DNA of 64,000 nt from Psammoneis japonica (Eukaryota). Positions 27,800 to 64,000 of the stretch are shown one piece after another (the first letter of the stretch is position 1; every line of letters begins with the position of its first letter). The notes under the pieces were generated by a model. That model saw only the letters and a list, made by a program, of their open reading frames with translations, had not been told where the DNA came from and ran no database searches. The stretch is taken from positions 1 to 64,000 of the forward strand of contig QPGO01000048.1 in assembly GCA_008632985.1 (NCBI GenBank). Reading direction: 5' to 3'. Position numbers and translations under genes: made by a program.

Positions 27800-29300
27800 C
27801 TTGGAGCACTCTCATGCTGCACCCAGAATTGCTGAGAAACTTGCTCAATGCTGTGGCATTCCCTTTTGTTTTCCTGCCATCAAGTTTCCTCCTCAGACAC
27901 TGTTTTTTTTTCCTTTGGTGACTCCAGACAGAGCCACACCTGCCCCCACAATCCCAGCTCTCTCTGAAGTCAAAGTTGTTCACAATCAGGCTCTCAGCTG
28001 CCCTCCACTGGAGCTTGCAGAGGTGGCTGTGTGGTTCATGCCATTTTGCACAAAACTGGGAGCTGGGTCATTTGCATTCTCTTGTGGCTGATTCTCAGAG
28101 CTTTTTTTCAAGAACAAAACCCATCACAGAGACAGGAAAGTTGGCAATGCATGTCTCTTTCTTTGGAGCCAACTTGAGACTGACATCTCCCTGTTTTGTC
28201 CCTTTTCTCATGCCTCAAGATGGTGGGCTCAACTCATGAAACACAGGCTGAGCTGACCCAACAACCATCAATCCTCATCAACTCCAAATCTTCCAAAGAA
28301 ACACCTTTCTTCAGCTCAATTCCCCCAGAAACCAACAGGGCTGCTGGCCTGCTTTTCTCAACATCTTCATTGCAGATTGTTGCTTAGAGGGCAGCAATGG
28401 CAAAGCTTGAGAGGTGGGCCCACATGTCTGGATTTGTTGCCAGCTTGCTTGACATGGGCATCTGGACAGGCTGCAAACAAAATGTCCTCAGGCAGCTCAT
28501 TCTGAAATTTCACATGCTCCCACCTTGCATTTTGCCTCCTTTTCTGCTTGAGGTTGCTTGCGTAGATCACAATGTTGTGGGGGCTGGATGTGGCTGTACA
28601 AGAGATTTTGAGCATGTGTCCCCTCTTGCACCTTCTTTCAGAGCTTCACTTTGGCATTTCCCATGGGGTCAATGAGGTGGTCACATGCCAAGCACACTTT
28701 GGCAAAATGCTTGTTGCCTTCTCCATGTGCTGGGTCACCCAGCATGGCTTTTGCATTCCTGGCTGCTTTTTGCTTTTGTGGTGCCAGCATTGGCAACCAG
28801 CATGGAGGGTGCTAGAACAAGGAGCTTCATTGGGGGGTCACAAGGGCTCATCTTTCAAGAAGATTGTGGCAACTCTTGTGTCAAGAGAGCATCAAGGACA
28901 AGGGTGCACATGGGCTGCTGCTTGCATTTTGTTGAAAAAAATGTGAGGCGCTTCACGCAGATTTGGTTGCATGTGTTCATTCACTGAAAAAAGTGTGAAG
29001 CTGCTTTTTCATGTTTTTGTTCAAAGCTTTCCAAGTGATCAATGCAGATGTTGATGTTGGCTGAATGACATTGTTCAAATGTCCACAATGCTTTTCAAAA
29101 ACAAGTCAGCAATGCACCACAAGATGTGGGCAATGAGAGCCATGTGCTTTCATTTTTTCCTTTGTCAGACCATCTGCCTCACAGTTCCATTTTGACACTG
29201 ACACTGTAATTTACAAGCAGGTGCACACTTGGTCTTTTCCTTGCCAGCACCATGGCTGTTGACAAAGCAAGAAGCAAGAACAAGCAGCAGCCAAGACTCA
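27800..29300 (-). mobile_element. Degenerate Pif1-like SF1 helicase remnant (Helitron-like element)
   Basis: Fragmented motifs: FVNSHGAGK (Walker A-like, ~29250), IVD..MSF (~29080), PPLKLCHCCPL (~28400), KLQWR..ESLIV...W (~28000), VALSGV (VALSRV-like, ~27930). Confidence 0.55.
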
Positions 29301-31419
29301 CAAGAAGAGACACCAAGTCCAAAGAAGGCAAAAGAAGGAAAAGTGGCCTGCATGCCAGAGAAAAAGAGCCCTCCTCTTTGTGTTCAAACAATGGCCCTCA
29401 CAGTGTCACTCAGCCAGCTTGTGTTTGTGGACAAGGAAACAAGATTTGCTTTCTGGGGGCAGCTGAACAAGGGTGTGAGAAACAGACACAGCTGGTGGGT
29501 TGAGAGAAGGATGAAGATCTAAAGGAATTGGTTGGTTGTCCTGACTTGTCTGACCACAAGTGATTGTCTGACCACAATTGATGAGAACAATGCCAAGCCA
29601 CATCTTCAACTTCATCAGTTTGCATGTCACAAGTTGGGCAACAAGCCACAAAAAGACAACAAAAGTGCAAGACAGAGTGCTTTGTTGTTGATGATGAATT
29701 TGTGTTTGACATTGACATGTGCACTTTCTGCTCATTGCACTGGACCACTTGTGAGCAGCAAACAAGTGCCATTGTCAAGTTGACCAGAGAGGTGCATGAT
29801 GAAGATGATGCTGACCCAGCTCTTGTGCATGTGCCACCACACCATGTCTTGAGTTTGCTGGCAACAAACTTCCAAAGGAAGCCCAAGAGCATTGCAGGTG
29901 TCCTTCTCTCTAAGACTGACAAATGCAACAACATTCATCACAATTCTGGCATCTGCTGGCTCATTGTTGCTCTGTGCTTGCAAAGACAGTGAAACACAGC
30001 CATCCACCAGCAAAGCATCCACTCCAATTTGCACTGAAAAGTTCATCAATCAGTGCATTTGGGGAGCCTGCAGTGGCAATGCTGTGCCATGCAGTGTGCC
30101 AGCGGAGAGCAGAGAGTGAGCAAAAATTGCACTGGCAAATCACAAAACTTGCCAACAGGGCAGATGTTTTTCAGGCAGCTGCTGGCTGGCCCACCTGCCT
30201 GGCCTGGCTGGAGATGCCCCCACCCTGGCAGCTTCTCAAACAGCATGGGCAAAGCTGCATGATGACAACACTCAAGTGGACAGCAATTCCTTGAGTGAGT
30301 CTCCCTCTTGTGGCTCATGACTTTGACTTTGTGAGCTGCCTGCACAAGAGAAGTTTGCAAGCTGCACAGTGCAGCTTTTCATTGCCCTCCCTGTGCAGCT
30401 CACAACTTTGTGCACTGCACAAAGGAAGTTCACAAGCTGCGTGATGCAATGTTTCATGATGGAAGCACCCAACCTTGCTTGCTCAAAACAACACAAGAAA
30501 CAGACCATGACAGCAGCAGCAACAGCCAATGCCAGATTGTGCCACCAAACCTTTTCCCACCAAGAACACCAATGCATCACATGCCACAGCATTTTGCTCT
30601 GACAAATGCATCCATGAAAAGAGAGGTGAGACAAGTCAAAAATGGACGAAACTTCTTCTTTGACTTTGCTGTCATTCCTGCTTAAATCTCACAACTTTAA
30701 CAGCTGATGCTGATTTGCCACCAAACTTTTCAGGCCAACAATGCCAACATGTGACATGCTTTGTTGCACTCAGAAAAGTGCACACAAGAAAAGAGAGGTG
30801 AGAAAGAAGTCCAAAAATGGACAAACACTCCTTCCTCATGCTGAGATTTTGCAGACATTCACACTCTTTTTTCACAACTGTTGCATTTCAATTTGTTTGT
30901 TCTCAACAAATTGAAGAGTGCAGACCATTGCACAGATGATTGAGACTCGTTGTGATTTGTGATGCCAAGTGTTGGGCAGAGTTGGTTGGGTTGGCAAGCA
31001 GCCCACAGCAGGGTGAGGCAGGCTGGAGATGATGACGATGAGCAAAAGAGGATCAGGGGGGCAACTCAAGTGTGTGGAGCACTCATCATGGGAATCTGCA
31101 ATCTGCCACTTTTACAAAGGTCCAGGAACAACTGGCTGATGAGGTTGCTGTTGTCCTCTCTAAACATTTGAGTGACTGCCTGGGTTGGCTGACTTTTGAC
31201 TGCAGCGGCACCTGTGCAATTTCTTTCTGCAAAGATGTTCATGTGGCTTGAGATCCCCCACCTCTGAACATTGAGACAGCCGACAAGAGCCAAGGGGTTG
31301 CTCTCTGGCAAGGCATTGATTGATGCTTCTAAGGAAGGGAGTGTTCTTGATTCAGCAGACCCAAAATCTCAGTTGCAACAAGGCTTGGCTTCACTCAAAA
31401 GCCAGTGCATGTGAATTGA

Positions 31420-31662
31420 CTGCTGCTGGCATGACTGCTGCAACCACTGCCATTCTGACTGCTGCCATTGCAACTGCTGCTGTTGCAACTGCTGCCATTT
31501 TGACTGCTGCTGTTGCAACTGCTGCAGTTTGCAACTGGCACTGTTGTGAGCACTGCCATTTTGACTGCGTTGCAATTGCTGCCATTGCAGCCATTGCCAT
31601 TGTGGCAACCACGACAATTGCAACTGCCATTGTTGTGACTGCTGCCATTGTGACTGCCACTG
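31420..31662. repeat. Degenerate minisatellite of (G/T)CAACTGCTGCCATT / TGACTGCTGCCATT-like units
   Basis: Recurrent actgctgccatt / actgctgctgtt units visible in the sequence. Confidence 0.8.
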
Positions 31663-32049
31663 TTTTTAGACTTTTGTTGTTGCATTTGCCATCATTGGTG
31701 GGGCTGCAACTGTGGCTGTTCAGACCCTGCTGCTGTTGAAAAAGCTCAATTGTGCTCTTGCTTTTTGTGTCAATTGGCAATTTTCTCCACATCTTGTTTG
31801 TTCTTGAAATCCCATTTTGCCTGACTGCACCCTTCCTCTGTTTCCAGCACCCTCACACAAATGCTCCTCTTTTGCTTCACTGACAAGCAACTCTGCCATC
31901 CTTGCTTGCCATGACTTGCTTGAACATTTGCTGGTGAGCCTGGGGCATTTTGCTTTCATGCCAACTCTTCTTTGGCATCACACTTGTGGCCCCAAACAGG
32001 GTTCCTTGTCCTTTGATGTGGTCTGATCTTCTTCTGCCAGAGCCCTTTC

Positions 32050-33210
32050 TGCTGCCACCACTGCTGGTTCCACCCATGGCATGCTGGGGTGACAGGTGCT
32101 GAACAGTGAGTTCTTTAGATGTCAGGGGTCCATGGCAAAGGAGGAGGTGGGTCAACAGGGATGTGTGGTGGGAGGGTGGCATGGAGTGCACTGAGTGATG
32201 GAGAGAAGAAAGATGAGCCAAGAGTGTGGACAGACAGTTGGGAGGAAGAGTTGTCAGTGACAGTTGGGTGTCAAAGAAGGAGAGTTTGGCATGCAGAGAG
32301 GTGGTTCAAGAGAATGACACTGAAGTTGAGGCTGAGGATTTGTGAAGCCCAAAGTTGGGGGGTTGCACGGTGTGATGGGAGGTGCCAAAGTGGTCTGGTG
32401 ACACTTGCTTCTGGGTGATGTTGGAGTGGGTGAGGAAGTTGGAGGGGGGTGGGAGCGAGCATTTGAAGGCAGAAAAGGAAGCTTGGGAGTTGGAGAGGGA
32501 AGATGGATCAGCCCAAGGTGGCTTGGGAGGGAGAGGAGGGATGCCGGAGGAGGATGTTGTGGTTTGTGGTTGAGACACCAAAAAAGAAGATGTGGAAGTG
32601 GCGTCCAGGCCAATGCCACCTGGGTGATCAAAGGTGAAAGGGAGGAGGAAAAGTCCTGCTTGATTGACAGTGTCAATGATGTCAGAGCAGCAGGCGGATG
32701 ATGCAGTGCGACCAATGAGCTTGTCCCGTGTGCTGCTGAGGCGAGCCTTGTTTGACAGGTTTTCAGGGGCAGGCAAACCAGGCGCAGGAGGTGGGGGAGC
32801 TGGCAGTGCAGCAACATCAATGGCTGGAAATTGGTGGCTTGATGGGGCTTCCGACGGTGCAGAACCAAGCACAAATTGAGCACCAATGTTGGCGGGGTGT
32901 TCCAAGGGGTGGTCGTCCACTGACAAGAAGACCGGTGGGGTCTGGATGAACTTGTTGTCGAGAGTGGCACAGACCACCAAGGGGGGCCAGTGTTTCAATG
33001 ATGGTGCAGATGATGGTGTCATGGATGTGGTTTGAAAAAGGGCTCTTGTGCATTTTGGGGCAGGTGAAAGCACGGTCTCCGCAAGGGGCGGTCTGGGCAG
33101 GTGTGACCGAGTGGACAGTCGTGTTGGAGCAGATCAGGAGAAACAATGGGGAGCCACAGCTTGAGGAGAAGGAGAAGTGTGAACAGGGTTGGTGGGAGTT
33201 GGTTTGAGGC
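32050..33210 (-). mobile_element. 3' fragment of an RLE-type (CRE-like) non-LTR retrotransposon
   Basis: CCHC-like PCGDRAFTC.K.HK...SNHIHD, followed by HPANIG (RPAD-like), AIDV and LLPFTFDHPGGIG restriction-like endonuclease motifs. Confidence 0.6.
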
Positions 33211-33528
33211 ATGTAGTCGGGAGAGAGAGTAAAGGCATGAGGATCGTTCCAACACTTTGTTATTTTGGCGAGTTGACGACGGCTCCTCTCGCTCGCTTTT
33301 TATTTGTTCTTCTTCCGCACCACTTAGGTACAGCTTACAGACCTCCCAGTCATTGGGAGTGCGCGGCTGCCGCGGCTTTATCGATCGCTTTTGGCTTTTC
33401 CCCCTCCCCGCCCGCCCCGCGGCCGCGGCCGCGCTCATTCATACATCGGTGTTGCCGAACTTCCAACATTTATACAAAACAAACAACACACCACTCCACT
33501 CAGCAAACAGCGACAAGCAACCACAGAG

Positions 33529-39196: not shown

Positions 39197-40945
39197 TTAT
39201 GAGCCAAGTTCCTCGGTGAGAAAATATGAGATTGCTTGATTCCACCAATTTGGTAGGGGCGCTTCAACGTCAATGTCATATTCAGTGATGCACAATCATG
39301 AGGTATGCAGCAAGAATCGCTGCTGCTCACCATCCACCGGCAAAGCGGCAACATGGGCCAACGAGTCTCTGTCGTCGCTTGTACTTGAATAGTCGGTGTC
39401 AAAGAGAATGGGGAATCCCAATCCTTCGGCACAGTGAACTCACACTTGATGTTTCCTTCCAGCACGAGTTTCGATTCGAAGACACACAGGGCAGAATCAC
39501 TGCATTCTTCAACTGCAGCAAAGGTAGACTGGGGTGTGCCGACTTCCCGTGCACTGGAATGTCAATCTCCCCATGAAAAGGGATTTCCTTTGCACTGGCA
39601 GCTGCCACAGTCAAGCAGCTCTTTTTTGCTTTGCAAAAAAAAAGAATTCAGCAACAAGCTTTGCATTCATTTCATCAGTTTTTGCAAGTGCAGTGCAGCC
39701 AGGTGTCCTGCGATCAATTCTGTGAACAAGGCCCCTTCTTTCATGATTGAGTGCTGAAAGCGGGACATTGAAATGATCCAGGAAATCCTCCAAAGATGCA
39801 TCAAAGCATGTCCTGGATTGCTCTCACCCTTTCTTTAAACTGGAAGATCTTTGCAAAGAAAGAATTCAGCAACAAGCTTTGCATGCATTTCATCGGTTTT
39901 GGCAAGTGCAGTGCAGCCAGATGTCCTGCGATCAATTCTGTGAACAATGCCTCTTTCTTCATGATTGAGTGTTGAAAGCAGGACATTGAAATGATCCAGG
40001 GCATCCTCCAAAGATGCGTCAAAGCATGTCCTGGATTGCTCGCACCCTTTCTTTGAACTGGAAGATTGCATTCTTCCAGCCGAAGTCTTGCATCTCCTGT
40101 TGAAGCATGCCACACCAGGCAGTTTGATGCAACCACTGCACTCCCAGATCAATGCAAAAATTGAAAATCAAGGCCACACAAGTCTCAAAGCAGTTCTTCC
40201 ACATCCTTGACTTGTGCTGCTCAGCCCTTGCATTGAGTTGCAGCCCTTGCATGATGGCATTTTGACCCTCCTTTCTTCTTGATCAGTTTTCCATCATTTT
40301 CCAGCTTTCTCCAAAACTGGGTTGGCTTGTGACACAGTGAGGGAGCCATCAGATGCAAGGCACAAAGCTGAGCACACCAGCAACAAAACACCATGACATC
40401 AGGGCATGTTTCAATGGATTTGGACATGTCCCAAGCCAGCAGATGAGCTCCCCGGATGCAGCATCGTCAGCCAGACAACCAGACCCTGTGAAAGCACGCA
40501 AAATTCCAGACAGCTCAGGCTTGTTGTTTTCTGCTGCATCAAGTGATGTGCATTGACCAGGTCTTTGGGTGAAAGTTCAAGTGGCAATGTGTTGCAACAA
40601 ATCCAGAACAGCGTCAGTCTCACCAGCCATGGTGTGAACTTTCTTGGCATGGTCAGATGGGTCATTCATCAAAACAAGCAAACACAAGGGCTTGCTGCTG
40701 CTGCTGCTGCTGCCACTGTGCAAAGCACTTTCACAACCCAAAGGCTGGTCCATGGTGCACTCAGAGATGTCTGCATGATGACAAACCAACTGCTTTGAAA
40801 TGTCTTCCTTTCCAGGCACATTTGTGCTGCCTCTGACACCATGCCCCAATGCTCAACAGCTGACAATGTTCAAGCATCAACATTGAAAAATGGGGCCAGA
40901 GCAGCTGACAACCATTGACATCATCTCTGTCTCAATCTTCATCAT
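39197..40945 (-). pseudogene. RluA/RluD-family pseudouridine synthase pseudogene with internal tandem duplication
   Basis: KLPGVACF (motif I), GIVHRIDRRTSGC (motif II, twice), ETRAGRKHQV*VHCAEGLGFPILFD (motif III), RFLLHTS*L...VEAPLP.WW; in-frame stops and frameshifts; 5' end approximate. Confidence 0.85.
39641..40066. repeat. ~218-bp-period tandem duplication
   Basis: aaagaattcagcaacaagctttgca...aactggaagat occurs at 39641-39848 and again at 39859-40066. Confidence 0.95.
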
Positions 40946-41039
40946 GGGATTCATTTGTTGAGAGACCATGCCCGATGAGCGCTCACAGGGGGGGAAAGCA
41001 GGTGCCTTCTTCATTTGTTTTCATGTCCAGCTGTGCCAG

Positions 41040-41998
41040 CTTTTCATGCCATCATGTTGTGGTGCTGAGTGTTGCTTTCAGTGTTTGATTGTGTGGTGTT
41101 TGGTGTGTGGCACACAGGGCCAGAATTGTGCCCCCATGCAGGCCAACTTAGCAAGGACTTGCACATTTCAGAGCAGCAGAACAAAATCCAAAACTTGCTG
41201 CTCTCACTGTGCCTGTGCTCATGGCAGCCTGAGCCACAATTGGCAGCAACCTCTGTCATTCAGTTGGCAGCAACCTTCATCAATTGGTGGCCACAGGCTC
41301 AGGCACTCAACCTCCCTCTCAGCTTTCAGTGACACCCCAATCTCAACAATCTCAACGAAGGGAACCTCCATCAGCTGGCAGTGACATCTCTGTCAACTGG
41401 CAGCAACCTTCATCAATTGGTGCAAACAGCACCATTTGTGCCACACAATGGGTGACAACCATCAACATCACCTCTGCCTCAACCTCAATGTCCCAAAACT
41501 CATTTGCTCAAGGACCGCGCCTCTGCCAACCTCTTGGCACATCCCTCTCTCATGCAGCTGCCAGGGGTCTCTGGTTTGTGTGTTCTCAGGTGAAGTGGCC
41601 TTTCCAACTTGCTTCTATCCACCCCCTCTTTGTGCTGTCACTTTTGTCATGCTGAGTGTTGCTTTGAGTGTTTGATTGTGTGGTGGGGTCCAGTGCATGT
41701 GTGGTGTGCATCAAGCAGGGCTGTTGTCATGCCCACATGGACCAATTCAATGAGGACTTGCACATTTCAAAAAACACAAAATCCAAAACACCATTCTCAC
41801 CATGCCTGCACTCTTGGCAGCCTGAGTCAATTGGCAGCAGTGACCTCCATGAATTGGAGCGATGCAAGTGACACCAGCACTTGTGCCATGCAACAGGCAA
41901 CAACTTCCTCCTCAATCTCAATCCTAAAACTTGTCTGCCAAGGGACTATGCCTGCCGAGCTCTTGGCTTCCATCTCTCTAGCAGCTGCCAGGGCTCTC
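41040..41998. repeat. Degenerate nested direct repeats, TpA/CpG-depleted
   Basis: gctgagtgttgcttt.agtgtttgattgtgtggtg at ~41064 and ~41651; tggcagcaaccttcatcaattggtg at ~41265 and ~41398; cagctgccaggg at ~41555 and ~41982. Confidence 0.8.
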
Positions 41999-51639: not shown

Positions 51640-53597
51640 AAATGGTAGCGTAGGTGTTGCCAGTTAAGTCCAGAGGTCGGGGCAAATCGAATGCGTCTCT
51701 CCGGCCTTGAGTCCATGTCACTCTCGTGTCTTTGAGCGAGGAAGTTGCCTGTTCGCTTGACCCAGTCAGGTCACGGCTGTTGAAACAGACAGCAGCGTTC
51801 GTCTGCAAAGCAGCAAAAGCTCGCCGAGCAGATCATACCATTGACGGAACACAGGTTTGGGGTTCTGTCGTATCAGTGACATGATACGGTGAGTCTTCAC
51901 TCGTAGGGAGTGTTGATTTAGAACGCGGTCGACTCGCAAGTTTTCTTGTTGTCTCCGTAGTACGTCCCCCCTTTTTCTTTTCTTGGGGTGAATTTTCACT
52001 CTGAAGATACGAAAAAGCTTGAGCGCCATCTTTTGATGGCGCTCTTGAGCAACGTACCCTACGCGACCGATTTCAATAGATACTTTTGATATTGGTGTGT
52101 TTCAAATATTTGAAACACGCTTTGAAACTTTACAATAGAAGCAGAAAGACTAACAGTACCAGATAGTAATCCTTATTTATGTGTAAGTTATTCCATGCAT
52201 ATGTCAATGGACTACGATGGCGGTCGTAGCGCTTGAAATGTCGTTGCATACTCTGATGTCGTTGTTTCTGTTTTTCTCCATTGACAATCTTAAGGCCACA
52301 GGCGATCCCTTGAGAGCAGTCTGCTCCTTGCCGTTGCCCTTGATGGAGGTCACTTTTCTTGCAGAAAGAGCTACCCGTCCAGAACGCATCATGAAGTGTT
52401 AAGCTGGTAACGTGCAATAGACGCGGGATCCCAACCACGAGAAGCACCTTAATGAAACGATAAAATATAACGCACCGTTGAATGTCTGTCGACTGTAAGA
52501 GCAGACTTGTCTGCTTCGGACCGAGTTATCCATTTCCTCAGCGTTCTATCAAAGACGTACTCATCTTCTGGCTTTTGATGATCACTCTTCTTATCAACCG
52601 TGGACAGACCTGTGCCTTGTTCGAATGAGATACTGAGAATGTTGTCAAAGTGTGATTGTTCAGGTACGCCACCTCGAGCGTCCCCGGAGCTAATCTTTCC
52701 CGACGCACTATCAAATGAAGCAGTTGTACCTTCAATCATCATTGCTATCATTGTCAAAGTACGATTGTTCCGGTGGTACGCTACCGGTATTGCTCGTGGA
52801 ATCTATTCTTCCGTGGCGCTATGAAATGAAACAGCTGTATCGTCGAACTGAGAACATGATCGTTTGAAGCGGCTGGAGCGAGGACTTGACTGATCCAAGC
52901 ACACTATGATAGCTAGAAATGGCACTTTAGCACCGTCAATGCCTTGAAGAGATCTCAGCAGAAAAAGGAGTTACCCCGTGGAATCGGCTAAACCTGCTCA
53001 GTTTGAAACTCGAAAGTTGCGAAGAAGATGGGGCATTGCAGTTTCGAAGAAGACAGGGCGGGCATTGCGGCACTGTGTGCCCCACCGTTGCGCGCAACTT
53101 TGAACATGCCACATCACGTCTCAAGAAGTCTTCTCATCTTTGACTTGTGCGACTGAAAAGAAAGCTTGTGGCGCATGGAACTTCCGCCACTCAGTGTAGA
53201 TTTACTTGCTTGCTTGACTACAGTAGAAAGCCGGTTGGGATTGATAGGCTTTTGAACACTATAATCTATGTCTTAGATTCTATAAGGCGCCGCGAGACAG
53301 AAGAGTGTTCTCTGTGTCGCCTTGGGCTTGCCAATATCAGCTGAAAGCTTGCGCATGGCATTCGCAGGCAGCTGTCTCTAGAGATAAGACTAGAATTCAG
53401 AACGGACACACCAGGCTTACGCTGACGCGATCGCATCACTCGTTCAGGAGATAGCTGCTGTGCGACTTAAGCGTTACTGAAGAAGAGCGAAACACAAACA
53501 GCTATAGAATGCAAGCTAGTCGAGTTCCTATCATGAGTGATTATTTAATTAGCATTTGCAATATTGATCCGGTGATCGTCTTGGGCGTTTTCGAATC

Positions 53598-54380
53598 TTA
53601 GTGCTCACCCGGAATCTCCATTCTTTTCAGAATAGAAATTTCATCTCGTAAATTGCTTCGTGCCTTACTTTCCATGGCAGAACGAAAAACATCAGTGACA
53701 AAAAGAACCGGTTGTTTAAGAAAACCCTCCAGTATTTCCGCACGTTTCTCACAATAGATTGTGCGATCTACAAACCGATATTCCTTTCGTATCAGACCCG
53801 CGTATACTTTGTAAGCATTCGCCTCTTTTCCAAGCACACATATATCCATATCCAACAAAAGTCTCATGCATTTGTCGTCTTCTATAACTTTGTGATTCTG
53901 TGTAGCGAGAATACAAGCGATAACCCTTTTGAACAAGGAATCACTATCCTTCTGTTTCGTTTCTGTAACAAACTTGCGAAATACAGCTGCGCTATCAGTT
54001 TCGTTCGTTTGAGATCTAGGATCGTAAATTGCATCGTGAAAGAATATGGCGAGCCCCAGCACCGAGTATTCGATTTCATCAATGTCTTCCAGCAAGTCGA
54101 GGTATCCAAACATTTCTTCTAGATGCACTACCGTGTGATAAGCTCGATCGTCGGCGCAATGTTTTTCGAGAATAGTCTCAAACCAAGAATTGGAAGCTTC
54201 ATCATGCGGTGCGAAACATTTTGTTGCTCTCCTCCACCGCTTCTTCAAGTTATCTTTTCGGCGCTTTCCATCGTTGGTGGTCACTGGTGGAAAGGTAAAT
54301 ATCTTGTTCGTGGACATCCATGACCTGGCGAAGGAATTATCTTTTTCGATACTTGACGGAGGCGTGTCCGACATAGACAT
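53598..54380 (-). CDS. HD-superfamily metal-dependent phosphohydrolase (COG4339-like)
   Basis: RAYHTVVHL, AIFFHDAIYDP, LLDMDICVLG, Y..Y...IRKEY motifs. Confidence 0.88.
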   Translation of the reverse strand: MSMSDTPPSSIEKDNSFARSWMSTNKIFTFPPVTTNDGKRRKDNLKKRWRRATKCFAPHDEASNSWFETILEKHCADDRAYHTVVHLEEMFGYLDLLEDIDEIEYSVLGLAIFFHDAIYDPRSQTNETDSAAVFRKFVTETKQKDSDSLFKRVIACILATQNHKVIEDDKCMRLLLDMDICVLGKEANAYKVYAGLIRKEYRFVDRTIYCEKRAEILEGFLKQPVLFVTDVFRSAMESKARSNLRDEISILKRMEIPGEH

Positions 54381-54678
54381 GGTCTGAAGCGGCGGCTGAG
54401 CGAGAAGCTCATCATCTATCTTCTCTCGTTGCTCGTCGTGGCAATCATCCGCACCGCTTCCACCATGCTTGTTTGGCGTGCGCTCGCGCGCGCGAGCGCG
54501 GAATCTGTCGACGCGAAAGCACGGCCGACCATCCGACATCGGACGTTTTCAAGTTTTGGTGGTGATGGCATGACGCATGACCATCACAATGATGAGCGAT
54601 AGCGCTGAGATTACGTCGTCTTTCTGAAACTCATCATTCGTTTGCGCTTATTGTACTGTCAGCCTTGTCATTATCAAC

Positions 54679-55533
54679 ATGAGCATGCTCATCAACTCGT
54701 TCCTTGTGCAAGGCGCGGGCGCAGCGCTGGCCAGTGGACTGAACACCGTTTCATCCCTTCCACTCGACGCTCTTGTTCTCATGTCTCTCGGAGCGGACTT
54801 TCCCACTTTAATTAACACTGTCGACAAAGCCAACATTGACTGTCCTGTCCATCTTACCGAGACGTATGGAATCATTGGGCATGATGATGATTTGGGACGC
54901 AACGTTGAATTGATGGAAAAAGGGCGAGGCCAAGAGCATGGATTTCAGGGCGGCAGTGGCGGGCAAGGATGTCTTGCACCAGCATTTTCACAAGGAGCGG
55001 TTGCTGGACACATGGATTCTGCGGTCCCTCAAGACGCATCCTCTTTGATGGTGATTGCCGACACATCTGGTGCTTTTGCAGAAGTGTCGGGAAAATTGCC
55101 TCTGCACTGTGGTGGGATCACAAAGGAGGCTTGGTTTCTAAACAATGGCGAACTCGAGAAAGTCCCTTGCTTTTGGGTGGCCAGCCAATCGCGCGATTGT
55201 CCAATCGGTGCACCAGCGTTCAAGGGCGATGCCAGTGAGGCGACAGAAGCCCCAATGTCAAAGCTCCCTTCAGGATGGCAACCCAGTGGACAGGTCGGTC
55301 TGTTTCCATGTCATGCACGCGGTGTGAATCATTGCGGTGCCGAGAATGTAGAAGTGGATGCCATTGCATCACTTCTTTCAGAGAAGGGTTCTGCTCCTCA
55401 CATTTTTGGCATGTTTGCTCACGGCGAACTCGGTCCGTCTAGCTTCAGTGGGTTCATGAACGAGAAGAACGACATTGAGTGCGAGAAACACAGCATGACG
55501 AGCATTTTGTCAATCCACACGTCAGTGGGTGAG
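54679..55533 (+). CDS. FIST-C domain protein, interrupted 3 codons before its stop by the Copia insertion and hypermutated
   Basis: LFPC.ARG...E...IFGMFAHGELGP (FIST-C). The native end GCG TCC AGC TGA lies after the 3' TSD at 62118-62129. Confidence 0.75.
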
Positions 55534-55880
55534 TGTGACAATGTTCATGTTTGCATGTTTTTACAACAACATCGGACCTCCACGATTCAAATCAGAGATC
55601 CAAGATTCGAACCCCGTGTGCGATGCTCAGTCTCGAATCCCGCGGAAGCCGAGTCACGAATGCGATGTTTGTTCCCAGCTTCGCGCTTGTTCAACTTCGC
55701 GTTTCCTTTAGATGGCAGCTGCATCTGCTCATAAAAACTGCTCACAATCTTTCCAATGCACTGATTGTCACCTCTCAACTTTTGGTGCAACAAAGTTGCT
55801 GATTGATTGTTGTGTCGCAATCACAGCTTTTAATCACTGAAAGTGCAGACGAATCTTAGAATTCCGGCTACTTTCCCACA
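55534..55880 (+). repeat. 5' LTR
   Basis: tgtgacaat...ctttcccaca; 338/347 identical to the 3' LTR by manual alignment. Confidence 0.97.
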
Positions 55881-55954
55881 CGCTTCCTCTGCGAAACCCA
55901 CAAGTTAAGTCAATCGATCTTAAGCTCTCGATTCTACTTCACTCTGCTGTCACC

Positions 55955-57462
55955 ATGGTCACGCAGACACGAACCGCGGCTGCTCTAGCTGCCTCTGTTG
56001 CAGCTCCCGCTGCTGCACCCGCTGCAGCTCCCACCACTGCTGCTGCTCCGGCAACAGCACCTGCTCCTGCAGCCGCTCCAGTTGCTCCTGCACCTCCCCC
56101 AGTCGTTCCTCCCGGTGCACCTCCAGGAGGAAGTGGCGGAGGAGGTGGAGGAGGAGGCGGAGGTGGAGTCCCACCAGGTGGAGTCCCGCCAGGTGGACCA
56201 CCATTGGCACCTGTGCCACCACTGCCGATCTTCGCGTTGACTCCAGGTCAACACCGTCCCAACAACTTCATCGACTGCGGCACATCGCAAGGCCTCAAGC
56301 TTTGGAACGCCGCTGCTGCACCGCTGCCACACGAGTTCAACGGCGATTCAGAAGGTCTCAAACGGTTTTGTGAGACACTCAGTCAACGAGCTGCCGAGGC
56401 AGGATGGAAAACAGGGGCAAGAGACATGCTTGCCATTCCCGACGCGAATGGAACTCCACGAGATCTCATCTCCGAGTGCGGGCTGCTCACTCTGCAGGAT
56501 GTGAGAACCCACGCGAACACCTTCGCGAATCCACCTGCGCGACAAGCACAGAACAATGTGCAGATGGCCGAGGCGATCTCTCAATCCCTTGCGGAGGAAG
56601 CAAGAGACAAGACATTGGCTGAGATGGATTCCCACACGATCAATGGAAATCAAATCGGCACACTGTTCTTCAAGCTGCTTGCGCAAAAGGCCATCGTTGA
56701 CACACGCTCTGCCACCAACTGCTTCCGCGAGAACTTGTCAAGCCTGGACACGTGCATGGCGGCTGTTGGCTCGGACATCGAAGAGTTCAACAAGTGCGCC
56801 AAGCTCAACGTTGACGGACTCCAAGCTAGAGGAGAGCAGTGCGACGACCTTGTCATGAACCCATTCAAAGGATGCACCGCAGCTGCTGACGAAGCATTCG
56901 TCAAGCACATCATGTCACACAAGGACAGGTGCGACGACGGTGAGGAATTCACGCCGACACAAATCATGACGTTGGCACTGAACAAATGTGTTTGACCTCA
57001 AGCGCGAGAAGAAGTGGGGAGCACTGTCACCGGCTGAAGAGCAAATCGTCGCGCTTGCAGCCAAGGTAGACTCCATTTGAGGATCAGAACCTTCAGCCAT
57101 CTAAAGCTTTGAAGGCCAAGGCTGGTTCAATCAAGGAAAGAAGCACACGGTCAAGGAAGACCAAGACCACTCCACGTCAGAGACAGAAAGCGGACGAAGC
57201 CTGGAAGAAAGTCCCGCCCAAGGAGGACGCTCCCAAGAAGACAGTGAACGGTCATCAGTGCTGTCACAAGCGCGTCAACAATCGCGACTGTCACTGGTGC
57301 CCACATCACACTGCTTGGGTCATGCACTTGCCTGATGATCCGGGCAACCAAGGCTGTAGACTCCGCAAGCAACAGTCTGCTCCATCCACAGACACGTCGG
57401 ACAAGAAAGTCTCCTTCGCAAGTGCTGTCTCTGCCATCCCAAACGAAGTGGATCAAGAGTGA
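55955..57462 (+). pseudogene. Copia gag (frameshifted near 56990 and 57078; no Tyr in the two main ORFs)
   Basis: FALTP...IDCGT..GLKLW, PFKGC..AAD..FVKHI, WKKVPP, WCPHH..W..H motifs of CoDi-type gag. Confidence 0.85.
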
Positions 57463-60400
57463 CTGCTCTGCAGGTTCACTCTGACACTGCTGCTGTCCTT
57501 GCAGACAGCCGTCACTGTGTCAGTGCTCCTGATGGCGGTCGCTGGCGTCATGAAATGTGCAGCATCGATCTGGATCATGCTGCTGTTCATGATGCCATCC
57601 CTTCCTTCAGAAAAGTGCAAGCGCCTGTCACATGCCGCAATGACGCTGGGTGAGTGGGTCATCTCACATGTCCTGGCTGAACTGGGCACAAGACAAGTTA
57701 AGACTTGCCAGCGACGGCCAACGACGAGGTGCTGCGCACGGCATCATGCGTCGACGAGGCCAGGTCACCGCTCCAGAGTGGCCACCAAGAAGGCTCACTG
57801 TGTCATTGCACGACACAAGACGGTTAGAGCGTGCAACTCAGCCACACCACACCGTCCCGAGCGAACGGAGCCCACTTGCGATTCGGACTCATTCGCAATC
57901 GGCGTCGACTCGCATTCTTCCTGCACCATGTCCAACAACGAGGCACACTTCATTGGTCCTCTTCGCAAATCCAACAAAGTGGTGCTCGGTGTCAAGGGCT
58001 GCTTGCGTGCTGAGGGAGAAGGAACAGTGCAGTGGGCAATTGAGGACGACATGGGACGAGTGCACAGCATTAAAATTCGAGACGCACCCCATGTGCCGGA
58101 CTTGCCTCATTGTCTTCTCTGCCCGCAGCAATGGAGCCAACAAGCTAATGACCACACGCCAGAGCCTCACGGAACCGTGTCTTGGACCAGGGACGACGGA
58201 CCATTGCTGATGTGGGACCAGCGCAAGTGCCATCGCCTGATTCCATTGTCCGCCAACTCTAACGTCGCCAAGATGCGCTCCGCACCCGGTTCCAACAAAT
58301 GCCGGACCTTTGCAGCCGCTGTCGAAGAACAAACCGACATCGAAACTATCGAGCACGTGGCCTGTCAAGCTCACATCATGCCACCAGACGACGAGAGCAT
58401 TGCGAATGATGACGAGGCTGCAATTGATGCAGACGTCTTCAGAAGTCCATCCGAGACACGTCCTTCTGAGACGCAAGACGCACGCAACACTGCTGATGAG
58501 GATGCTCCTGTCTCATTTGAGCCAACAGACGGAGCAAGTCGTTCAGACTCAGACGAGGAAAACCTGAGGGATTTCACGACACCGGAGGTGCAGCAGGACT
58601 TGCCGGAACCCATCAACATCATACCAAATGATGACGCCCTTGCTGCCACAGATGACCAGGGTGAACTATTGCGTTGGCATTGCCGCCTGGGCCACATGTC
58701 ATTCAAAATGATAAAGCCATTGGCCGCCCTAGGCATTCTACCGAAACGCCTTACAAAGGTGCACAACCCAAAATGTGCCGGCTGCCCATACGGTGCCATG
58801 ACGAAACGACCATGGCGATCCAAGTCCAAGCGGAACCGACGAATCCACTTGGCAACTTCGCCTGGAGAAGCCGTATCCGTCGACCAGCTCGAGAGTCCTA
58901 CTCCTGGATTGATCCCACAGCTCAAAGGGAGACCTACGAAACAAAGGTATCGAGCAGCGACAATTTTTGTTGATCATTTCAGCGGATTGGGGTGCATGTA
59001 TTTGCAGAAAGGACTTACCTCAGCCGAGACGCTCGAAGCCAAGCACGCTTTCGAGGCATTCGCACGCCGGATGCACGTCCGTATTCAACACTACCACGCC
59101 GACAATGGAAGATTTGCTGACAATGCTTTCATACAAGACGTCAAGAAGCAACAGCAAACAACATCCTATTGTGGGGTCAACGCCCACTTCCAAAACGGCA
59201 TCGCGGAGAAAAGAATGAGGGACCTCCAAGAGCAATCTCGGAAGCAACTCCTGCATGCAAAAGTGAGATGGCCAACGGCTATTGAGTTGAACTTATGGCC
59301 AAGCGCTCTCAGGAACTCAAACGAGATCAAGAATCACTTACCAAATCACGAGGACGGCTCTTCTCCGCTGGAACGTTTCTCGTCCGTCAAGGTCCAGCCT
59401 AATCTCAAACAACACCATACCTTCGGCTGTCCCGTCTACGCCTTGCACAACCGGTTGCAGGGAGGAGGTAGGCTGCCTAAGTGGGACCCAAGGGCAAGGT
59501 TAGGAATCAATTTGGGACCATCAACAAGACACGCAGGTTCAGTTACCTTGGTTCTGAATTTGCAGACCGGACTCGTATCGCCGCAATTTCACGTACAATT
59601 TGACGACTTCTTTGAGACTGTTCGTCCATCTGCTGGGAATCCTCCTACATTCTCACAATGGCAAGGCATTACAGGTTTCAGACAACTCAAGACAAGGAGC
59701 ACTTTCAACATCTTTGGGAAATCAAGTGACGTACCGGTTGAGGGATTAGTCCCTACCACAACGGAACCACCTGAGCCGAATTCGGATATCCCGTCTCAGC
59801 TGCTGCATCCTACTGATACGTCTACCACTGATGACTCATTTGATAATGCCCAACCGGATGATGAAATGCTATACACGCCTCCAGATGATTCTGACGCACC
59901 ATCTGAGCCACAGCGCACTATGGGTCAACCCAGTACCAGTAGGTCCGGCCGACAACGACGCCCGACCGAAAGGATGCGCGAGAGCCAACTACAACGGGCT
60001 CAAGGCATTGTCTCCTACAATGCAGAGGCAGAGGCATATTATGATGCGATGCACGAGGATGATTACAAACTGCAGGACGATATGGACTCACCTATCTCTT
60101 TTCTGGCGAGCTCGGACCCCGACACCATGTACTTTGATCAGGCCATGCGTGAACCTGACAGAGACGAATTTATCAGGGCCTGTGTTAAGGAGGTCAATGA
60201 TCATATTGAAAGGAAACATTGGATACTCATTCCAAGAGAGGACGTACCTGACGACGTCGATGTTCTCCCTTCGGTATGGTCTATGAAGCGCAAAAGAGAC
60301 ATTAAGACCCAAGCCGTCTACAAATGGAAGTCCCGACTTAATGTGCACGGCGGAAAGCAAGAGTATGCTGTCAACTACTTCCAGACCTACTCTGCCGTGG

Positions 60401-61722
60401 TCTTCTGGTTCACTATCCGGCTCCTACTGATCATTGCCATTCTTAAGAAGTGGCATACACGCCAAATCGACTTCGTTCTGGCGTATCCGCATGCCGATAT
60501 CGAATATGATATGTACATGGAGTTGCCTGCAGGAATTGAAACAAAATATGGCAATGGTAAGACTCATGTTCTGAAGTTGCTCAAGAACTTATATGGACAG
60601 AAGCAAGCAGGGAGAGTATGGCAAGAACACTTACGTGATGGATTGTTAAGGATTGGTTTCGTACAATCGGCGGTTGATGAGTGCCTGTATTTTCGTGGCA
60701 ATGTCATTTTCATTCATTATGTCGATGACGGTATCTTTGCATCCCCTGACAAGTCTGCTATTGACAAGGCGATACAGGATATCAGAGATGAGAATTTTGA
60801 TATTGATGATCAAGGCACTCTGGACGACTATCTCGGTGTCAACGTCGAGACACTACCAGACGGCAGAATGAAACTTACCCAACCTCACCTTATCAATCAG
60901 ATACTGGAGATGGCCAATATTCCAAAGAGACTACCAGATAAGTCTACTCCTGCTCCTTCCTCCAAGATCCTCCACAGGCATATGAGTGAGCCTGCTTTCC
61001 AAGGGAGCTTTCATTACCGATCCATCATCGGCAAGCTCAATTTTCTGGAGAAGAGCACTCGACCGGATATCGCTTACGCGGTGCACCAAGTCGCACGCTT
61101 TTCTTCCGATCCCAAGGTTTCTCACGGTGAAGCCGTACTATGGCTCTGTAAGTACCTAAGGTCAACCAGAACTGAAGGTATTATACTACAGCCCTCAACG
61201 GACAAGTCCCTTGAAGTTCACGCCGACGCGGACTTTGTGGGCAATTGGAATAAGCTGACTGCACCCGATGACGTCGGCACTTCCAAATCTCGAACTGGGT
61301 TTGTCATCACCTATGCAGGGTGTCCGATTGTCTGGACGTCCAAGCTACAGACTCAGATCGCGCTCAGCACTACTGAAGCTGAATTTATCGCTCTTTCGGA
61401 AAGTCTTCGAAGCGCCATCCCAATTATGAACCTCATTCAAGAATTTATGGATCACGGTCATAATGTCCCTTCCAAGACACCAGTCGTACATTGTAAGGCT
61501 TTTGAAGACAATTCTGGAGCATTGGAGATCGCGAGATTGCCTAAGATGCGTCCTCGGACAAAACACTTCAACCTCACTCTCCACCATTTTAAAGACCATC
61601 TTCGCAAAGGTCTCATATCAATCCTACCAATTGATACGGCGGATCAGATTGCAGACATTTTCACCAAACCTCTACCACAGAATCTCTTCATTAAACACAG
61701 GAAATCGCTCCTTAAGTGGTAA
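57463..61722 (+). CDS. Copia pol: protease, GAG-pre-integrase, integrase, RT, RNase H
   Basis: IGVDS, WHCRLGH, VSVDQ...HADNG...NGIAE, QIDF..AY, LYGQKQAGR.W, YVDD, DADF, STTEAE, EDN, ADIFTK. Confidence 0.95.
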   Translation: MLCRFTLTLLLSLQTAVTVSVLLMAVAGVMKCAASIWIMLLFMMPSLPSEKCKRLSHAAMTLGEWVISHVLAELGTRQVKTCQRRPTTRCCARHHASTRPGHRSRVATKKAHCVIARHKTVRACNSATPHRPERTEPTCDSDSFAIGVDSHSSCTMSNNEAHFIGPLRKSNKVVLGVKGCLRAEGEGTVQWAIEDDMGRVHSIKIRDAPHVPDLPHCLLCPQQWSQQANDHTPEPHGTVSWTRDDGPLLMWDQRKCHRLIPLSANSNVAKMRSAPGSNKCRTFAAAVEEQTDIETIEHVACQAHIMPPDDESIANDDEAAIDADVFRSPSETRPSETQDARNTADEDAPVSFEPTDGASRSDSDEENLRDFTTPEVQQDLPEPINIIPNDDALAATDDQGELLRWHCRLGHMSFKMIKPLAALGILPKRLTKVHNPKCAGCPYGAMTKRPWRSKSKRNRRIHLATSPGEAVSVDQLESPTPGLIPQLKGRPTKQRYRAATIFVDHFSGLGCMYLQKGLTSAETLEAKHAFEAFARRMHVRIQHYHADNGRFADNAFIQDVKKQQQTTSYCGVNAHFQNGIAEKRMRDLQEQSRKQLLHAKVRWPTAIELNLWPSALRNSNEIKNHLPNHEDGSSPLERFSSVKVQPNLKQHHTFGCPVYALHNRLQGGGRLPKWDPRARLGINLGPSTRHAGSVTLVLNLQTGLVSPQFHVQFDDFFETVRPSAGNPPTFSQWQGITGFRQLKTRSTFNIFGKSSDVPVEGLVPTTTEPPEPNSDIPSQLLHPTDTSTTDDSFDNAQPDDEMLYTPPDDSDAPSEPQRTMGQPSTSRSGRQRRPTERMRESQLQRAQGIVSYNAEAEAYYDAMHEDDYKLQDDMDSPISFLASSDPDTMYFDQAMREPDRDEFIRACVKEVNDHIERKHWILIPREDVPDDVDVLPSVWSMKRKRDIKTQAVYKWKSRLNVHGGKQEYAVNYFQTYSAVVFWFTIRLLLIIAILKKWHTRQIDFVLAYPHADIEYDMYMELPAGIETKYGNGKTHVLKLLKNLYGQKQAGRVWQEHLRDGLLRIGFVQSAVDECLYFRGNVIFIHYVDDGIFASPDKSAIDKAIQDIRDENFDIDDQGTLDDYLGVNVETLPDGRMKLTQPHLINQILEMANIPKRLPDKSTPAPSSKILHRHMSEPAFQGSFHYRSIIGKLNFLEKSTRPDIAYAVHQVARFSSDPKVSHGEAVLWLCKYLRSTRTEGIILQPSTDKSLEVHADADFVGNWNKLTAPDDVGTSKSRTGFVITYAGCPIVWTSKLQTQIALSTTEAEFIALSESLRSAIPIMNLIQEFMDHGHNVPSKTPVVHCKAFEDNSGALEIARLPKMRPRTKHFNLTLHHFKDHLRKGLISILPIDTADQIADIFTKPLPQNLFIKHRKSLLKW

Positions 61723-61765
61723 GACGTTTTCGAGTCATCATTCCACCCGACATTGTTGAAGGGAG

Positions 61766-62112
61766 TGTGACAATATTCATGTTTGCATGTTTTTACAACA
61801 ACATCGGACCTCCACGATTCAAATCAGAGATCCAAGATTCGAACCCCGTGTGCGATGCTCAGTCTCGAATCCCGCGGAAGCCGAGTCACGAATGCGATGT
61901 TTGTTCCTAGCTTCGCGCTTGTTTAACTTCGCGTTTCCTTTAGATGGCAGCTGCATCTGCTCATAAAAACTGCTCATAATCTTTCTAACGCACTGATTAT
62001 CACCTCTCAACTTTTGGTGCAATAAAGTTACTGATTGATTGTTGTGTCGCAATCACAGCTTTTAATCACTGAAAGTGCAGACGAATCTTAGAATTCCGGC
62101 TACTTTCCCACA
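61766..62112 (+). repeat. 3' LTR
   Basis: Direct repeat of 55534-55880, followed by TSD gtgag. Confidence 0.97.
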
Positions 62113-62717
62113 GTGAGGCGTCCAGCTGAGTCGCTTGAGTTGAGTCCATTATTTAGGCTACATTGCAACACATTGTGTCTTTTACGGGACACTTTTTGTC
62201 GCAACTGTATCAAGCCTAACAGTTGCATTTAAAACAAGACATTTACAAATCACAGAGATTACAGCACCTGCATCTTCCTTGAAAACTTTTCAGGCTTATG
62301 GCAGTTGATGAATAGAGACTCTAACACTGGAGCTCTCGCGGTCGGTCGTACTGTACGTATTGTACGTCGGGCGGGCGGTCCAGTCCCGATTCCCTACAGC
62401 ACGTGATTCAAAACGAGATAGTGCCATTCTGACGTTCTACGCGCTTCTCAGTATGTCTCCATGTACCTTATTTCAGTACGAACAGTTTGTCGTATGTAGG
62501 GTTTGTACTCAATCCTACGGCCTGACGGGACCCGGCGTTGGAAGCACAAAGTCAGAAGCGAAGCACGCACACACAGAACAAAAAGCACGGCAACAAAGAC
62601 GAAGTTGTTGCCTGTGTCATTTGCGTCGTCGGAGTTCCCTCGTCCTCTGCACCGACCGCAGAAGCAACCGTACCGTATCAAGTTCAAGGACATCAGAGAC
62701 TCAGCGACTGGCATTGA

Positions 62718-64000
62718 ATGAGGAAACGCGTCTTTTCCCACGAAGAATCATCAACTTCAAGATCGCCGTACCTACGTTCCGTACCGAGAAACGTTCTGGC
62801 GGTTGTCTGTATTCTCTTTGTATCTCTCTCCGCAGTGGTACTTGTCGACAACGCAAACAGCTCTTCCCATAATGGTCGCCATCACCTGAGGTCTGCGTAT
62901 GATGCAGTTCTTGACGGGGTTGACAATGACGAAGGCTCTGTGATTGACAGTTCTGGCGCGCGAAAACGATGGAGTCGGTCCCTCCAAGAAGAGCTTTCCA
63001 CCAAAGACTGTGCCACAGAATCAAATCCCTTTGACTCGGTACCAGACGCGGTCCAATACATAATGATTGTTATTCTAGTCATGTTCTCCGCGCTCTTCAG
63101 CGGACTTACACTGGGGCTGATGAGTCTCGATAAGACGGGGCTCGAGATTGTTATGGAGGGCGAAGACGAGAAGCTGGCGGAAGCTGCGAGGAAGATATAC
63201 CCGGTTCGAAAGAACGGCAATTTGCTCTTGTGTACGCTTCTTCTTGGAAACGTTGCAGTCAATGCGCTTTTGTCGATTCTTTTGGCAGACAAGGCTGGAG
63301 GTGCAGTCGGTTTTGTCGTTTCTACGGCGATTATTGTCGTTTTTGGCGAGATCTTGCCCCAGGCTCTTTGTTCGAGGTATGCTCTGCAGATTGGAAGTAG
63401 GACAGTCCCGTTGGTCAAAGTCATTATTGTGATTCTCTTCCCGATTGCATGGCCTTTATCCTTTGCGCTCAACAAGGCGCTTGGGCACGAGCTGGCAACT
63501 ACATACTCTACTCAGGAAATGCTCAAGCTGTTAGAGATTCATGTCGAAGAGGGAAGGTTCGACCAGGAGACCGGGACAGCCATGACAGGGGCGTTGAAGT
63601 ATAAGGTAAGTTACTACAGCTAGATTGCATCGTGAGTGGGAGACCGTGTGAACTTACCTGAACTTACCGGCTTTGTTCTTCTTCTATGCGATACCAGGAT
63701 ATCATGGTGAAGGAGGTGAGTAGATGGACACGTTATGAGTTCTGACTCGACTGGTTGAATGATAGCAATCCTTACGTTCATGTCCGTTGTGTTGCCGCCA
63801 CTTTCTCTCAGGTAATGACGCCTCTTGATAACACCTTTATGCTCGGAGTTGACGAGGTAAGTGGTGGAGTCCTTTCGTTGAAACTTTTGACAATCATGTA
63901 TCTCTTCCAATCTCACGGTGGTCTCTCCATTTTTTTATCAAAGAAACTTTCCTTTGAGACGATTGCAAAGATTTTCAAACACGGATACTCTAGGGTAGGT
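62718..64000 (+). CDS. CNNM/DUF21-CBS metal transporter (runs off the window)
   Basis: SALFSGLTLGLMSLD, LLCTLLLGN, FGEILPQA, GALKY/DI.VKEVMTPL...GYSR. Confidence 0.92.

Follow-up and report, generated by a model that had tools for sequence, protein, structure and literature searches.

Does a mutational process that strips a transposable element (TE) of one dinucleotide stop at the edge of the element, or does it pass into the adjoining host gene? The question is raised by a 64,000-nucleotide stretch of the diatom Psammoneis japonica (assembly GCA_008632985.1, contig QPGO01000048.1, positions 1 to 64,000 of the forward strand; hereafter the window), in which a Ty1/Copia element sits near the end of a host gene whose coding sequence (CDS) is almost devoid of TA dinucleotides. 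An earlier note on this DNA had proposed that hypermutation converts TA to TG or CA after insertion and reaches from the element into the gene. The evidence set out below makes it probable that a real and recent hypermutation of TpA to TpG or CpA has acted in place here and has crossed the border between element and host.

TA depletion, its timing and its effect on the host protein

Up to the insertion the host CDS contains 7 TA in 855 bp, where base composition predicts 48.6 (observed/expected ratio (o/e) 0.14), and encodes one Tyr in 285 residues; these exact counts agree with the approximate ones of the earlier note. Among 906 background windows of 855 bp, from which three TA-poor tracts were masked, the minimum is 9 TA and the median 34. 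Relative to the background, the CDS is rich in CA (o/e 1.61 vs 1.15) and TG (1.32 vs 1.11) and only slightly low in CG (0.79 vs 0.98); the background TA o/e across the window is 0.60. TA content outside was said to be normal, and it is: the CDS of the neighbouring HD-phosphohydrolase-like gene carries 41 TA in 942 bp (o/e 0.59), and the 855 bp past the 3' long terminal repeat (LTR) of the element carry 37 (o/e 0.66).

On the host side, depletion is near-complete over the ~670 bp next to the element, partial over the next 190 bp and absent beyond ~54.65 kb, with five TAs in 54600-54672. The whole depleted domain extends from there to ~58.6 kb; TA content is normal in the remaining 3' half of the element, in its 3' LTR and in the flank that follows (Table 1). 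It thus measures ~4 kb and is centred on the 5' end of the element, without covering the element as a whole.

The LTR pair dates the process. The two LTRs of one insertion are copied from one template during reverse transcription and are identical at integration. Here they differ at 9 of 347 positions. At eight of these the 3' LTR has TA where the 5' LTR has TG (3) or CA (5); at the ninth, the 3' LTR has CG and the 5' LTR has TG, and there is no difference of any other type. All eight TA changes lie within the first 272 bp of the 5' LTR, where 8/11 TA sites have been converted, leaving 6 TA in the 5' LTR against 14 in the 3' LTR. The concentration on TA positions (8/9, P = 1.5e-8) and in one LTR (8/8, P = 0.008, sign test) is significant. 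The process therefore acted on this copy after its integration, and the proposal of in situ action is independently borne out. Conversion was also faster than the accumulation of any ordinary substitution in the LTRs. Strand-coordinated clusters, as left by single-strand deaminases in kataegis, were considered and rejected: TG and CA changes are interleaved in both the LTR and the gene.

The direction of change in the gene was read from an alignment of the window protein with 45 of its 80 relatives, namely the 28 best and a selection spread over the remainder. The window protein keeps only one of eight conserved Tyr columns, whereas it has the majority residue at 139/157 conserved columns of other kinds (Fisher P = 6e-6). 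It has lost the other seven Tyr through Y58H, Y87H, Y144C, Y164C, Y219C, Y103F and Y243F. At columns 103 and 243 Phe is a natural variant among orthologues. At the five columns changed to His or Cys, these residues occur in 0/45 orthologues in four cases and in 3/45 in the fifth (His, column 164), and the window codons (CAT, CAT, TGT, TGC and TGC at positions 58, 87, 144, 164 and 219) are TAY with TA changed to CA or TG. V178A (GCA), L192P (CCA) and T213A (GCA preceded by T) also fit a TA change, and F/Y212H and L/I193M possibly do. In all, ~9-11 of 25 departures from the consensus are explicable by TA change, and the other 14-16 are not and look like ordinary divergence. Orthologues have a mean of 8.7 Tyr (range 5.7-11.5) per 285 residues. 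Across a 140-bp spacer, the HD-type gene keeps 7/7 conserved Tyr columns when compared with 45 relatives of its own. The Tyr loss in the one protein, with the other intact, means that the window allele is derived and that the direction was TA to TG/CA.

Six peptide motifs had been singled out by the earlier note as likely conversions, and all six coincide with departures from the 45-orthologue consensus: PVHLT (Y58H), QEHG (Y87H), PLHCGG (Y144C), VPCFW (Y164C), FPCHARGVNHCG (F/Y212H, T213A and Y219C) and EAPMSK (L192P and L193M). Had the orthologues shared the His/Cys residues and the low Tyr content, the proposal would have fallen; they do not share them. As to whether the host gene is damaged, the loss of five Tyr columns that are conserved in 34-45 of ~45 orthologues makes damage to the protein likely.

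The host protein belongs to a family with 80 relatives at E <= 0.001 in a search at near length, including a protein of Seminavis robusta; the best have 59% identity over 98% of the query and lengths of 278-300 aa. Searches at near and shorter lengths found no copy above 60% identity that could be the protein of the empty allele. Of the FIST assignment, only a weakly supported name is left. The window protein has no Pfam match. When it was scanned together with the 45 aligned orthologues, 28 of the 46 sequences gave FIST_C matches below the curated cut-off (best E 2.5e-4), and the family profile matches the C-terminal part of FBXO22 (E 1.3e-4), which we take to be its FIST_C domain.

When the element and one copy of its GTGAG target duplication are taken out, the sequence ...GGT GAG GCG TCC AGC TGA is regained. 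The insertion therefore lies three codons ahead of the natural stop, and the lengths of the orthologues agree. The open reading frame (ORF) from 54679 on the plus strand stays open into the 5' LTR, to 55734, because the element landed so close upstream of the stop. The host frame gains 66 codons from the LTR (55534-55734), and the predicted product of the inserted allele has 351 aa and a foreign tail, against 288 aa.

The element itself is assigned to Ty1/Copia by its sequence: pol carries RVT_2 (Pfam E 1e-36) with gag_pre-integrs and SH3_retrovirus, the integrase lies upstream of RVT_2, the LTRs are 97% identical with TG..CA ends, and the target duplication is 5 bp. In pol, residues 1-367 contain no Tyr and residues 368-1407 contain 28. 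The mutated gag and 5' part of pol (within 55955-61722) are unbroken frames with zero tyrosines, and the TA-free DNA gives long spurious ORFs in all six frames. A change of TA to TG or CA removes stop codons and cannot make new ones; mutated copies therefore keep open frames and could still move.

Table 1. Positions and TA content of the features discussed, numbered along the window.
Feature	Position	Strand	Remarks
Tract A	23962-33213		9.25 kb, 20 TA, TA o/e 0.04; CpG o/e 0.08; CA and TG ~1.86; GC equal to background
Tract B	39526-41924		3 TA, TA o/e 0.02; CG o/e 0.19; old-looking; local repeats
HD-phosphohydrolase-like gene (control)	53598-54539	-	41 TA, o/e 0.59; 7/7 conserved Tyr columns kept
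In-place mutated tract across host/TE border	54640-55805		~0.9 kb host DNA and first 272 bp of 5' LTR; left edge approximate
Host CDS	54679-55533	+	285 codons up to insertion; FIST_C-like protein family present across diatoms; 7 TA, 1 Tyr
Host CDS, outer part	54679-54865		TA o/e 0.30
Host CDS, part next to element	54866-55533		TA o/e 0.08
Target-site duplication GTGAG, left copy	55529-55533
Complete Ty1/Copia element	55534-62112	+	two 347-bp LTRs, gag, pol, target duplication GTGAG
5' LTR	55534-55880	+	347 bp, TG...CA ends, 6 TA; 8/11 TA sites in first 272 bp converted relative to 3' LTR, one CG-to-TG change
First 272 bp of 5' LTR	55534-55805		TA o/e 0.15
TA-normal stretch	55806-55986		o/e 0.48; LTR end, leader, first gag codons; 7 TA kept, 5/7 YTAR
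gag ORF	55955-56995	+	346 aa, 0 Tyr
TA-depleted inner element zone	55987-58600		10 TA in 2614 bp, o/e 0.08; density climbs toward 58.6 kb; TA present at many of these sites in other copies from the same sample
Inner zone, first part	55987-56826		no TA, o/e 0
Inner zone, second part	56827-58600		TA o/e 0.12
pol ORF	57499-61722	+	1407 aa; Pol_BBD, gag_pre-integrs, SH3_retrovirus, RVT_2 domains
Element 3' half	58601-61765		TA normal, 130 TA, o/e 0.63
3' LTR	61766-62112	+	unmutated, 14 TA, o/e 0.51; purine-rich tract GAAGGGAG ahead of it
Target-site duplication GTGAG, right copy	62113-62117
Remaining host CDS end	62118-62129	+	last three codons and stop (GCG TCC AGC TGA); displaced by insertion; orthologue lengths 278-300 aa

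Sequence context and two other TA-poor tracts

Two further tracts of the window, A and B, are also poor in TA, and the three together sum to ~15.6 kb, about a quarter of the window. The TAs that survive in them are not a random sample. They lie in the context YTAR (Y, pyrimidine; R, purine) in 10/16 cases in the 54.6-58.6 kb tract, 14/20 in tract A and 2/3 in tract B, whereas YTAR makes up 16.8% of 1964 TAs in the background (pooled P = 6e-12). The opposite context, RTAY, accounts for 1/39 survivors against 31% in the background. A TA thus tends to resist when its A precedes a purine on both strands, and the recurrence of this rule in three separate tracts favours a single sequence-reading agent over an artefact. 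A strand rule by which TAY becomes TGY is not claimed, as it fits 12/17 mixed-context sites and is not clear in k-mer gains.

No Pfam domain was found in 19 stop-to-stop ORFs of tracts A and B, nor in the six frames of tract A when read through with X, and neither tract has LTR-like repeats. Their loss of CpG is as expected for long-methylated DNA and is indirectly in keeping with silenced domains. The last 600 bp of tract A (32600-33200) are free of TA yet keep some CpG, like a younger margin. Tract B contains an uninformative tandem duplication of 218 bp (39629-40066, 92% identical).

The second allele and the element family in public reads

Logan contigs of two runs from one public sample (here X1 and X2) were aligned to positions 53000-63500 of the window. 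A 330-nt contig of X1 is identical to the window over 54881-55210, at a depth of 36.5 against ~56-58 in the flank contigs. From its identity at about half depth, the mutated allele is present in those reads. Two X2 contigs from the same gene (54604-55097 and 55088-55528) carry 15 and 17 differences from the window, or 32/925 (3.5%). Flank contigs differ at 1/1421, 2/882 and 1/1388 positions (4/3691), by which ~1 difference would be expected in 925 bp (P = 1.6e-36). At the left edge of the tract, the divergent X2 contig begins at 54604, shortly before the end (54635) of an X1 contig that matches the window at every base but 53984. The 32 differences are close to the number of missing TAs, since ~37 would be expected at background density and 11 are present. 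The earlier note had looked to the insertion-free allele for differences that would be almost all TA to TG or CA. Excess divergence confined to the gene is indeed found; the TA spectrum is seen at the one site of the 32 that is listed, 55491, where the window has CA and both runs have TA, a synonymous change.

The ends of the contigs suggest what the second allele looks like. X1 and X2 pieces both stop at 55528, where the X2 contig continues for 103 unaligned bases, and the X1 contig covering 62113-63500 carries 194 additional bases at its left end. If GTGAG is assigned to the right side, an allele without the element would give just such an arrangement. The X1 contig that reaches the insertion point has only the 55491 difference in its last 194 bases. 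At 53984 (C>A) and 55491 (C>T) every aligned contig of X1 and X2 departs from the window; either the runs do not correspond exactly to the individual that was assembled, or the window variant was lost from the contigs.

Word depth in these contigs is ~900-2500 over the element and ~57 in the flanks, so the Copia family has many copies. Variation among them is dominated by transitions (232/246 variant places in X1), and in X2, with the window as reference, C>T or G>A accounts for 88/113 variant places. Among 40 variant places listed, 25 have TG (14) or CA (11) in the window where other copies have TA, two are the reverse and 13 are of other kinds. With 14 TG and 11 CA, both strands were hit. 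At seven of these 25 sites all aligned contigs have TA, and at the rest TA makes up 12-91% of the depth.

Between 56323 and 60631, X2 contigs skip 14-15 stretches of 70-114 nt inside the element. Read on the minus strand, 12 of the 14 tested stretches begin with GT or GC and end with AG, and two of the joints are contiguous in a contig. The contigs look like abundant, multiply spliced antisense transcripts of the Copia family, covering ~55.9-60.7 kb and none over the LTRs. No RNA run was listed among those that contain the stretch; our guess, from the uneven depth and the intron-like joints, would be that X2 is one. The donor sites read GCAAGT in the TA-depleted zone against GTAAGT, GTACGT or GTGAGT in the TA-normal zone, and thus mutation changed GT donors to GC donors in this copy.

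Alternative explanations, known systems and the proposed process

Several points weigh against a process that started in the element and spread outward. The stretch 55806-55986 interrupts the domain: none of its three TA sites within the LTR has changed, and overall 0/7 TAs are converted against 8/11 in the adjoining part of the LTR (P = 0.004). The YTAR context of five of these seven TAs accounts for the gap only in part. The element's 3' half is just as repeated yet untouched, and neither this nor the TA-normal gap fits a simple outward spread from the whole TE. Depletion of the inner gag-pol zone may be partly inherited from a mutated parent copy. Tracts A and B, with no TE protein domain, do not establish the targeting of TEs as such, and TA is normal in 6/6 metagenome Copia loci (o/e 0.63-0.86), a small sample of distant relatives (37-57% amino acid identity). 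As for the second allele, a join across the empty site is absent from the joints listed and its structure is deduced from contig geometry; the X1 contig reaching the insertion point may be a mosaic of two alleles; the TA context of the other 31 gene differences is a prediction; and X1, X2 and the assembly may all derive from one sample and hence not be independent. The reach of at least ~0.8 kb given in the earlier note stands, as ~0.9 kb of host DNA is affected. Its outward direction is less firm, since the tract straddles the junction and its shape can only suggest where it began.

In one alternative, TA-poor tracts are chromosomal domains set not by spread from a TE but by something else, such as chromatin or replication state. 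The element would lie at the edge of such a domain or inside it, and its inner depletion would be inherited or derive from recombinant cDNA. In line with this, host DNA makes up three-quarters of the part of the tract whose mutation in place is certain (~54.65-55.8 kb), the TA-normal stretch separates this part from the inner zone, the 3' half of the element is normal, tracts A and B lack TE protein domains in any frame as well as LTRs, and many of the gag-pol TG/CA states of the window are common to 10-88% of the family depth, as inheritance predicts. However, states common to several copies are also expected from recurrent hits at the same TA sites, and the mutation of the 5' LTR after insertion shows that the process was active on this allele with the element present. 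Moreover, it is the divergent contigs, which presumably lack the mutations, that stop at the insertion point, and depletion peaks beside the element (o/e 0.08) and weakens outward (0.30, then normal). We consider such independent domains unlikely.

Editing of RNA is much harder to reconcile with the data. Here double-stranded TE RNA would be edited in the manner of ADAR and then reverse transcribed, and the flank would be converted from read-through cDNA. ADAR hyper-editing is an A to G change with a preference for 5' U/T, which resembles the 5' T seen here, and the antisense-like X2 contigs over 56.3-60.6 kb make a sense-antisense duplex plausible, as antisense RNA of the family seems to exist. 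However, edits made before integration would match in both LTRs, whereas the eight TA changes are in the 5' LTR only. Only sense RNA is reverse transcribed, yet TG and CA are about equal (14 vs 11) and both dinucleotides are raised. The 3' half lies under the same antisense contigs and is unmutated, and host DNA outside the element, which this route cannot alter, is changed. To our knowledge, ADARs are confined to animals. This explanation is very improbable.

An artefact, through base-calling errors at modified bases or through an assembly that joined a diverged paralogue or haplotype to the element, deserves equally little credence. The window differs from all aligned contigs at 53984 and 55491, and the divergent X2 contigs are also what true unmodified sequence would look like. 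Against this, the 330-nt X1 contig, from an independent assembly, reproduces the window at about half the flank depth, and X1 exact-word contigs of up to 315 kb suggest accurate reads. Strand-specific miscalls would leave TA or make CG, and there is no excess of CG (0.79). Both the LTR asymmetry and the context rule are features within one molecule. The flanks match the reads at 99.9%. Finally, codon usage or selection might have left the gene naturally low in TA and Tyr, and the under-representation of TA throughout the window might speak for this. Such an explanation is ruled out almost beyond doubt by orthologues with at least 5.7 Tyr per 285 aa and no His/Cys at four of five columns, by the conserved-Tyr comparison, by a TA count below that of every background window and by a second allele that is 3.5% different.

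Hypermutation of TpA in place thus remains the preferred reading, and its closest known counterpart is repeat-induced point mutation (RIP) of Neurospora and other ascomycetes. RIP changes C to T mostly at CpA, creates TpA, lowers GC and acts on duplicated DNA over the whole repeat; it is premeiotic and depends on methyltransferases of the RID/DIM-2 type. Its leakage into adjacent single-copy genes was reportedly described in Neurospora by Irelan et al. in 1994, and leakage also affects effector genes of Leptosphaeria. The two are alike in their dense transitions at one dinucleotide, made in place on the chromosome in kb-scale tracts that run ~1 kb into unique genes and inactivate them; at this locus ~0.9 kb of a single-copy gene is depleted, with a gradient toward the element. 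They are unlike in chemistry, with RIP the exact reverse. Here TpA becomes CpA or TpG (A:T to G:C), TA is destroyed and GC raised, as seen from orthologue Tyr (TAY) against His/Cys in the window and from a TA o/e of 0.14 with CA and TG elevated. In addition, only part of a repeated element is hit, the 3' half and 3' LTR being normal despite the high copy number, no new stops can arise, and the host belongs to the diatoms, whereas RIP is fungal. This change is beyond the reach of cytosine deamination or DNMT-like chemistry. Reversed polarity, in which the other copies would have undergone C to T changes as in RIP, is ruled out by the orthologues.

APOBEC3 editing shares the context-specific, deaminase-type clusters of transitions in LTR retrotransposons, but it turns C to U on minus-strand cDNA before integration, and so leaves a G-to-A bias, two LTRs alike and an unaltered host flank. 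Here the edits are in the 5' LTR only, the host CDS is changed, and there is no strand bias (14 TG vs 11 CA among the listed family variants, 3 TG vs 5 CA in the LTR). TadA/ADAT2 offers a more suggestive likeness. Its natural target, A34, follows U33 and precedes C35 (UAC), a context that resembles the TpA requirement and the resistance of YTAR sites, and engineered TadA deaminates adenine in DNA. However, the TAY to TGY directionality that it would lead one to expect held at just 12/17 mixed-context sites, and we know of no natural member of this family that acts on DNA. Polymerase eta makes errors at WA motifs (W, A or T) in immunoglobulin somatic hypermutation, and is thus similar in changing A to G after T or A within targeted kb-scale tracts; in contrast, changes in the AA context are rare here (0/9 LTR differences), and ~75-100% of TA sites are converted, whereas somatic hypermutation never comes near saturation.

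No description of TpA-to-TpG/CpA hypermutation, in diatoms or elsewhere, was found in the open literature, including the parts of PMC9258296 and PMC9998398 that were available; subscription journals were outside the scope. The accessible part of PMC9998398 discusses diatom DNMT4 relatives of RID and reports no mutation pattern. The kind of process, TE-associated hypermutation in place, is known, and what is new is a chemistry that no known system supplies.

The process that we propose would be an A-to-G transition, on one strand or the other, at 5'-TpA-3' on the chromosome, following insertion of the Ty1/Copia element near the gene end. Within its reach fell ~0.9 kb of host DNA, including most of the CDS, together with 272 bp at the start of the 5' LTR; gag and the first 1.1 kb of pol were possibly hit as well. 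The data show changes made at DNA level after integration, on both strands, at TpA with a rule for the flanking bases, close to saturation within tracts and extending to host DNA. The agent would probably be an enzyme that works on DNA. Deamination of adenine to hypoxanthine at TpA would be the simplest chemistry, since A can become G only if adenine is read as guanine. Once hit on either strand, a TA would become TG or CA and cease to be a target, which is why CG would not be produced. From the shape of the tract, the agent may be recruited to a silenced chromatin domain nucleated near the 5' (promoter) end of the element, and leak from there into the flank. The allele with the element would be inactivated and the empty allele would presumably stay intact. 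The agent could be a natural, putative DNA adenine deaminase or an equivalent base-conversion pathway. That diatoms, or at least this lineage, possess a genome-defence-like chemical rewriting of TpA adenines in silenced domains, a mirror image of RIP, is a tentative proposal that we regard as possible and would not yet assert.

If this is correct, TpA hypermutation acts on integrated DNA and not on RNA or cDNA, which would exclude the known routes of retroelement editing and would call for an A:T to G:C chemistry at TpA that no known natural DNA enzyme supplies. Tracts would be driven to zero TA before a single background substitution shows in the LTRs. At this locus, the host allele beside a new insertion would have been degraded while 2 x 347 bp of LTR gained no ordinary substitution, and the rate per site would therefore be orders of magnitude above background. 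Elements would keep open frames without tyrosines, while neighbouring genes would suffer allele-specific death and a local rise in GC. The asymmetry of TA sites between LTRs and the decay of TA depletion in the flank are simple statistics by which such tracts could be mapped genome-wide. The process may shape genome composition, the fate of TEs, allelic divergence and gene loss in diatoms.

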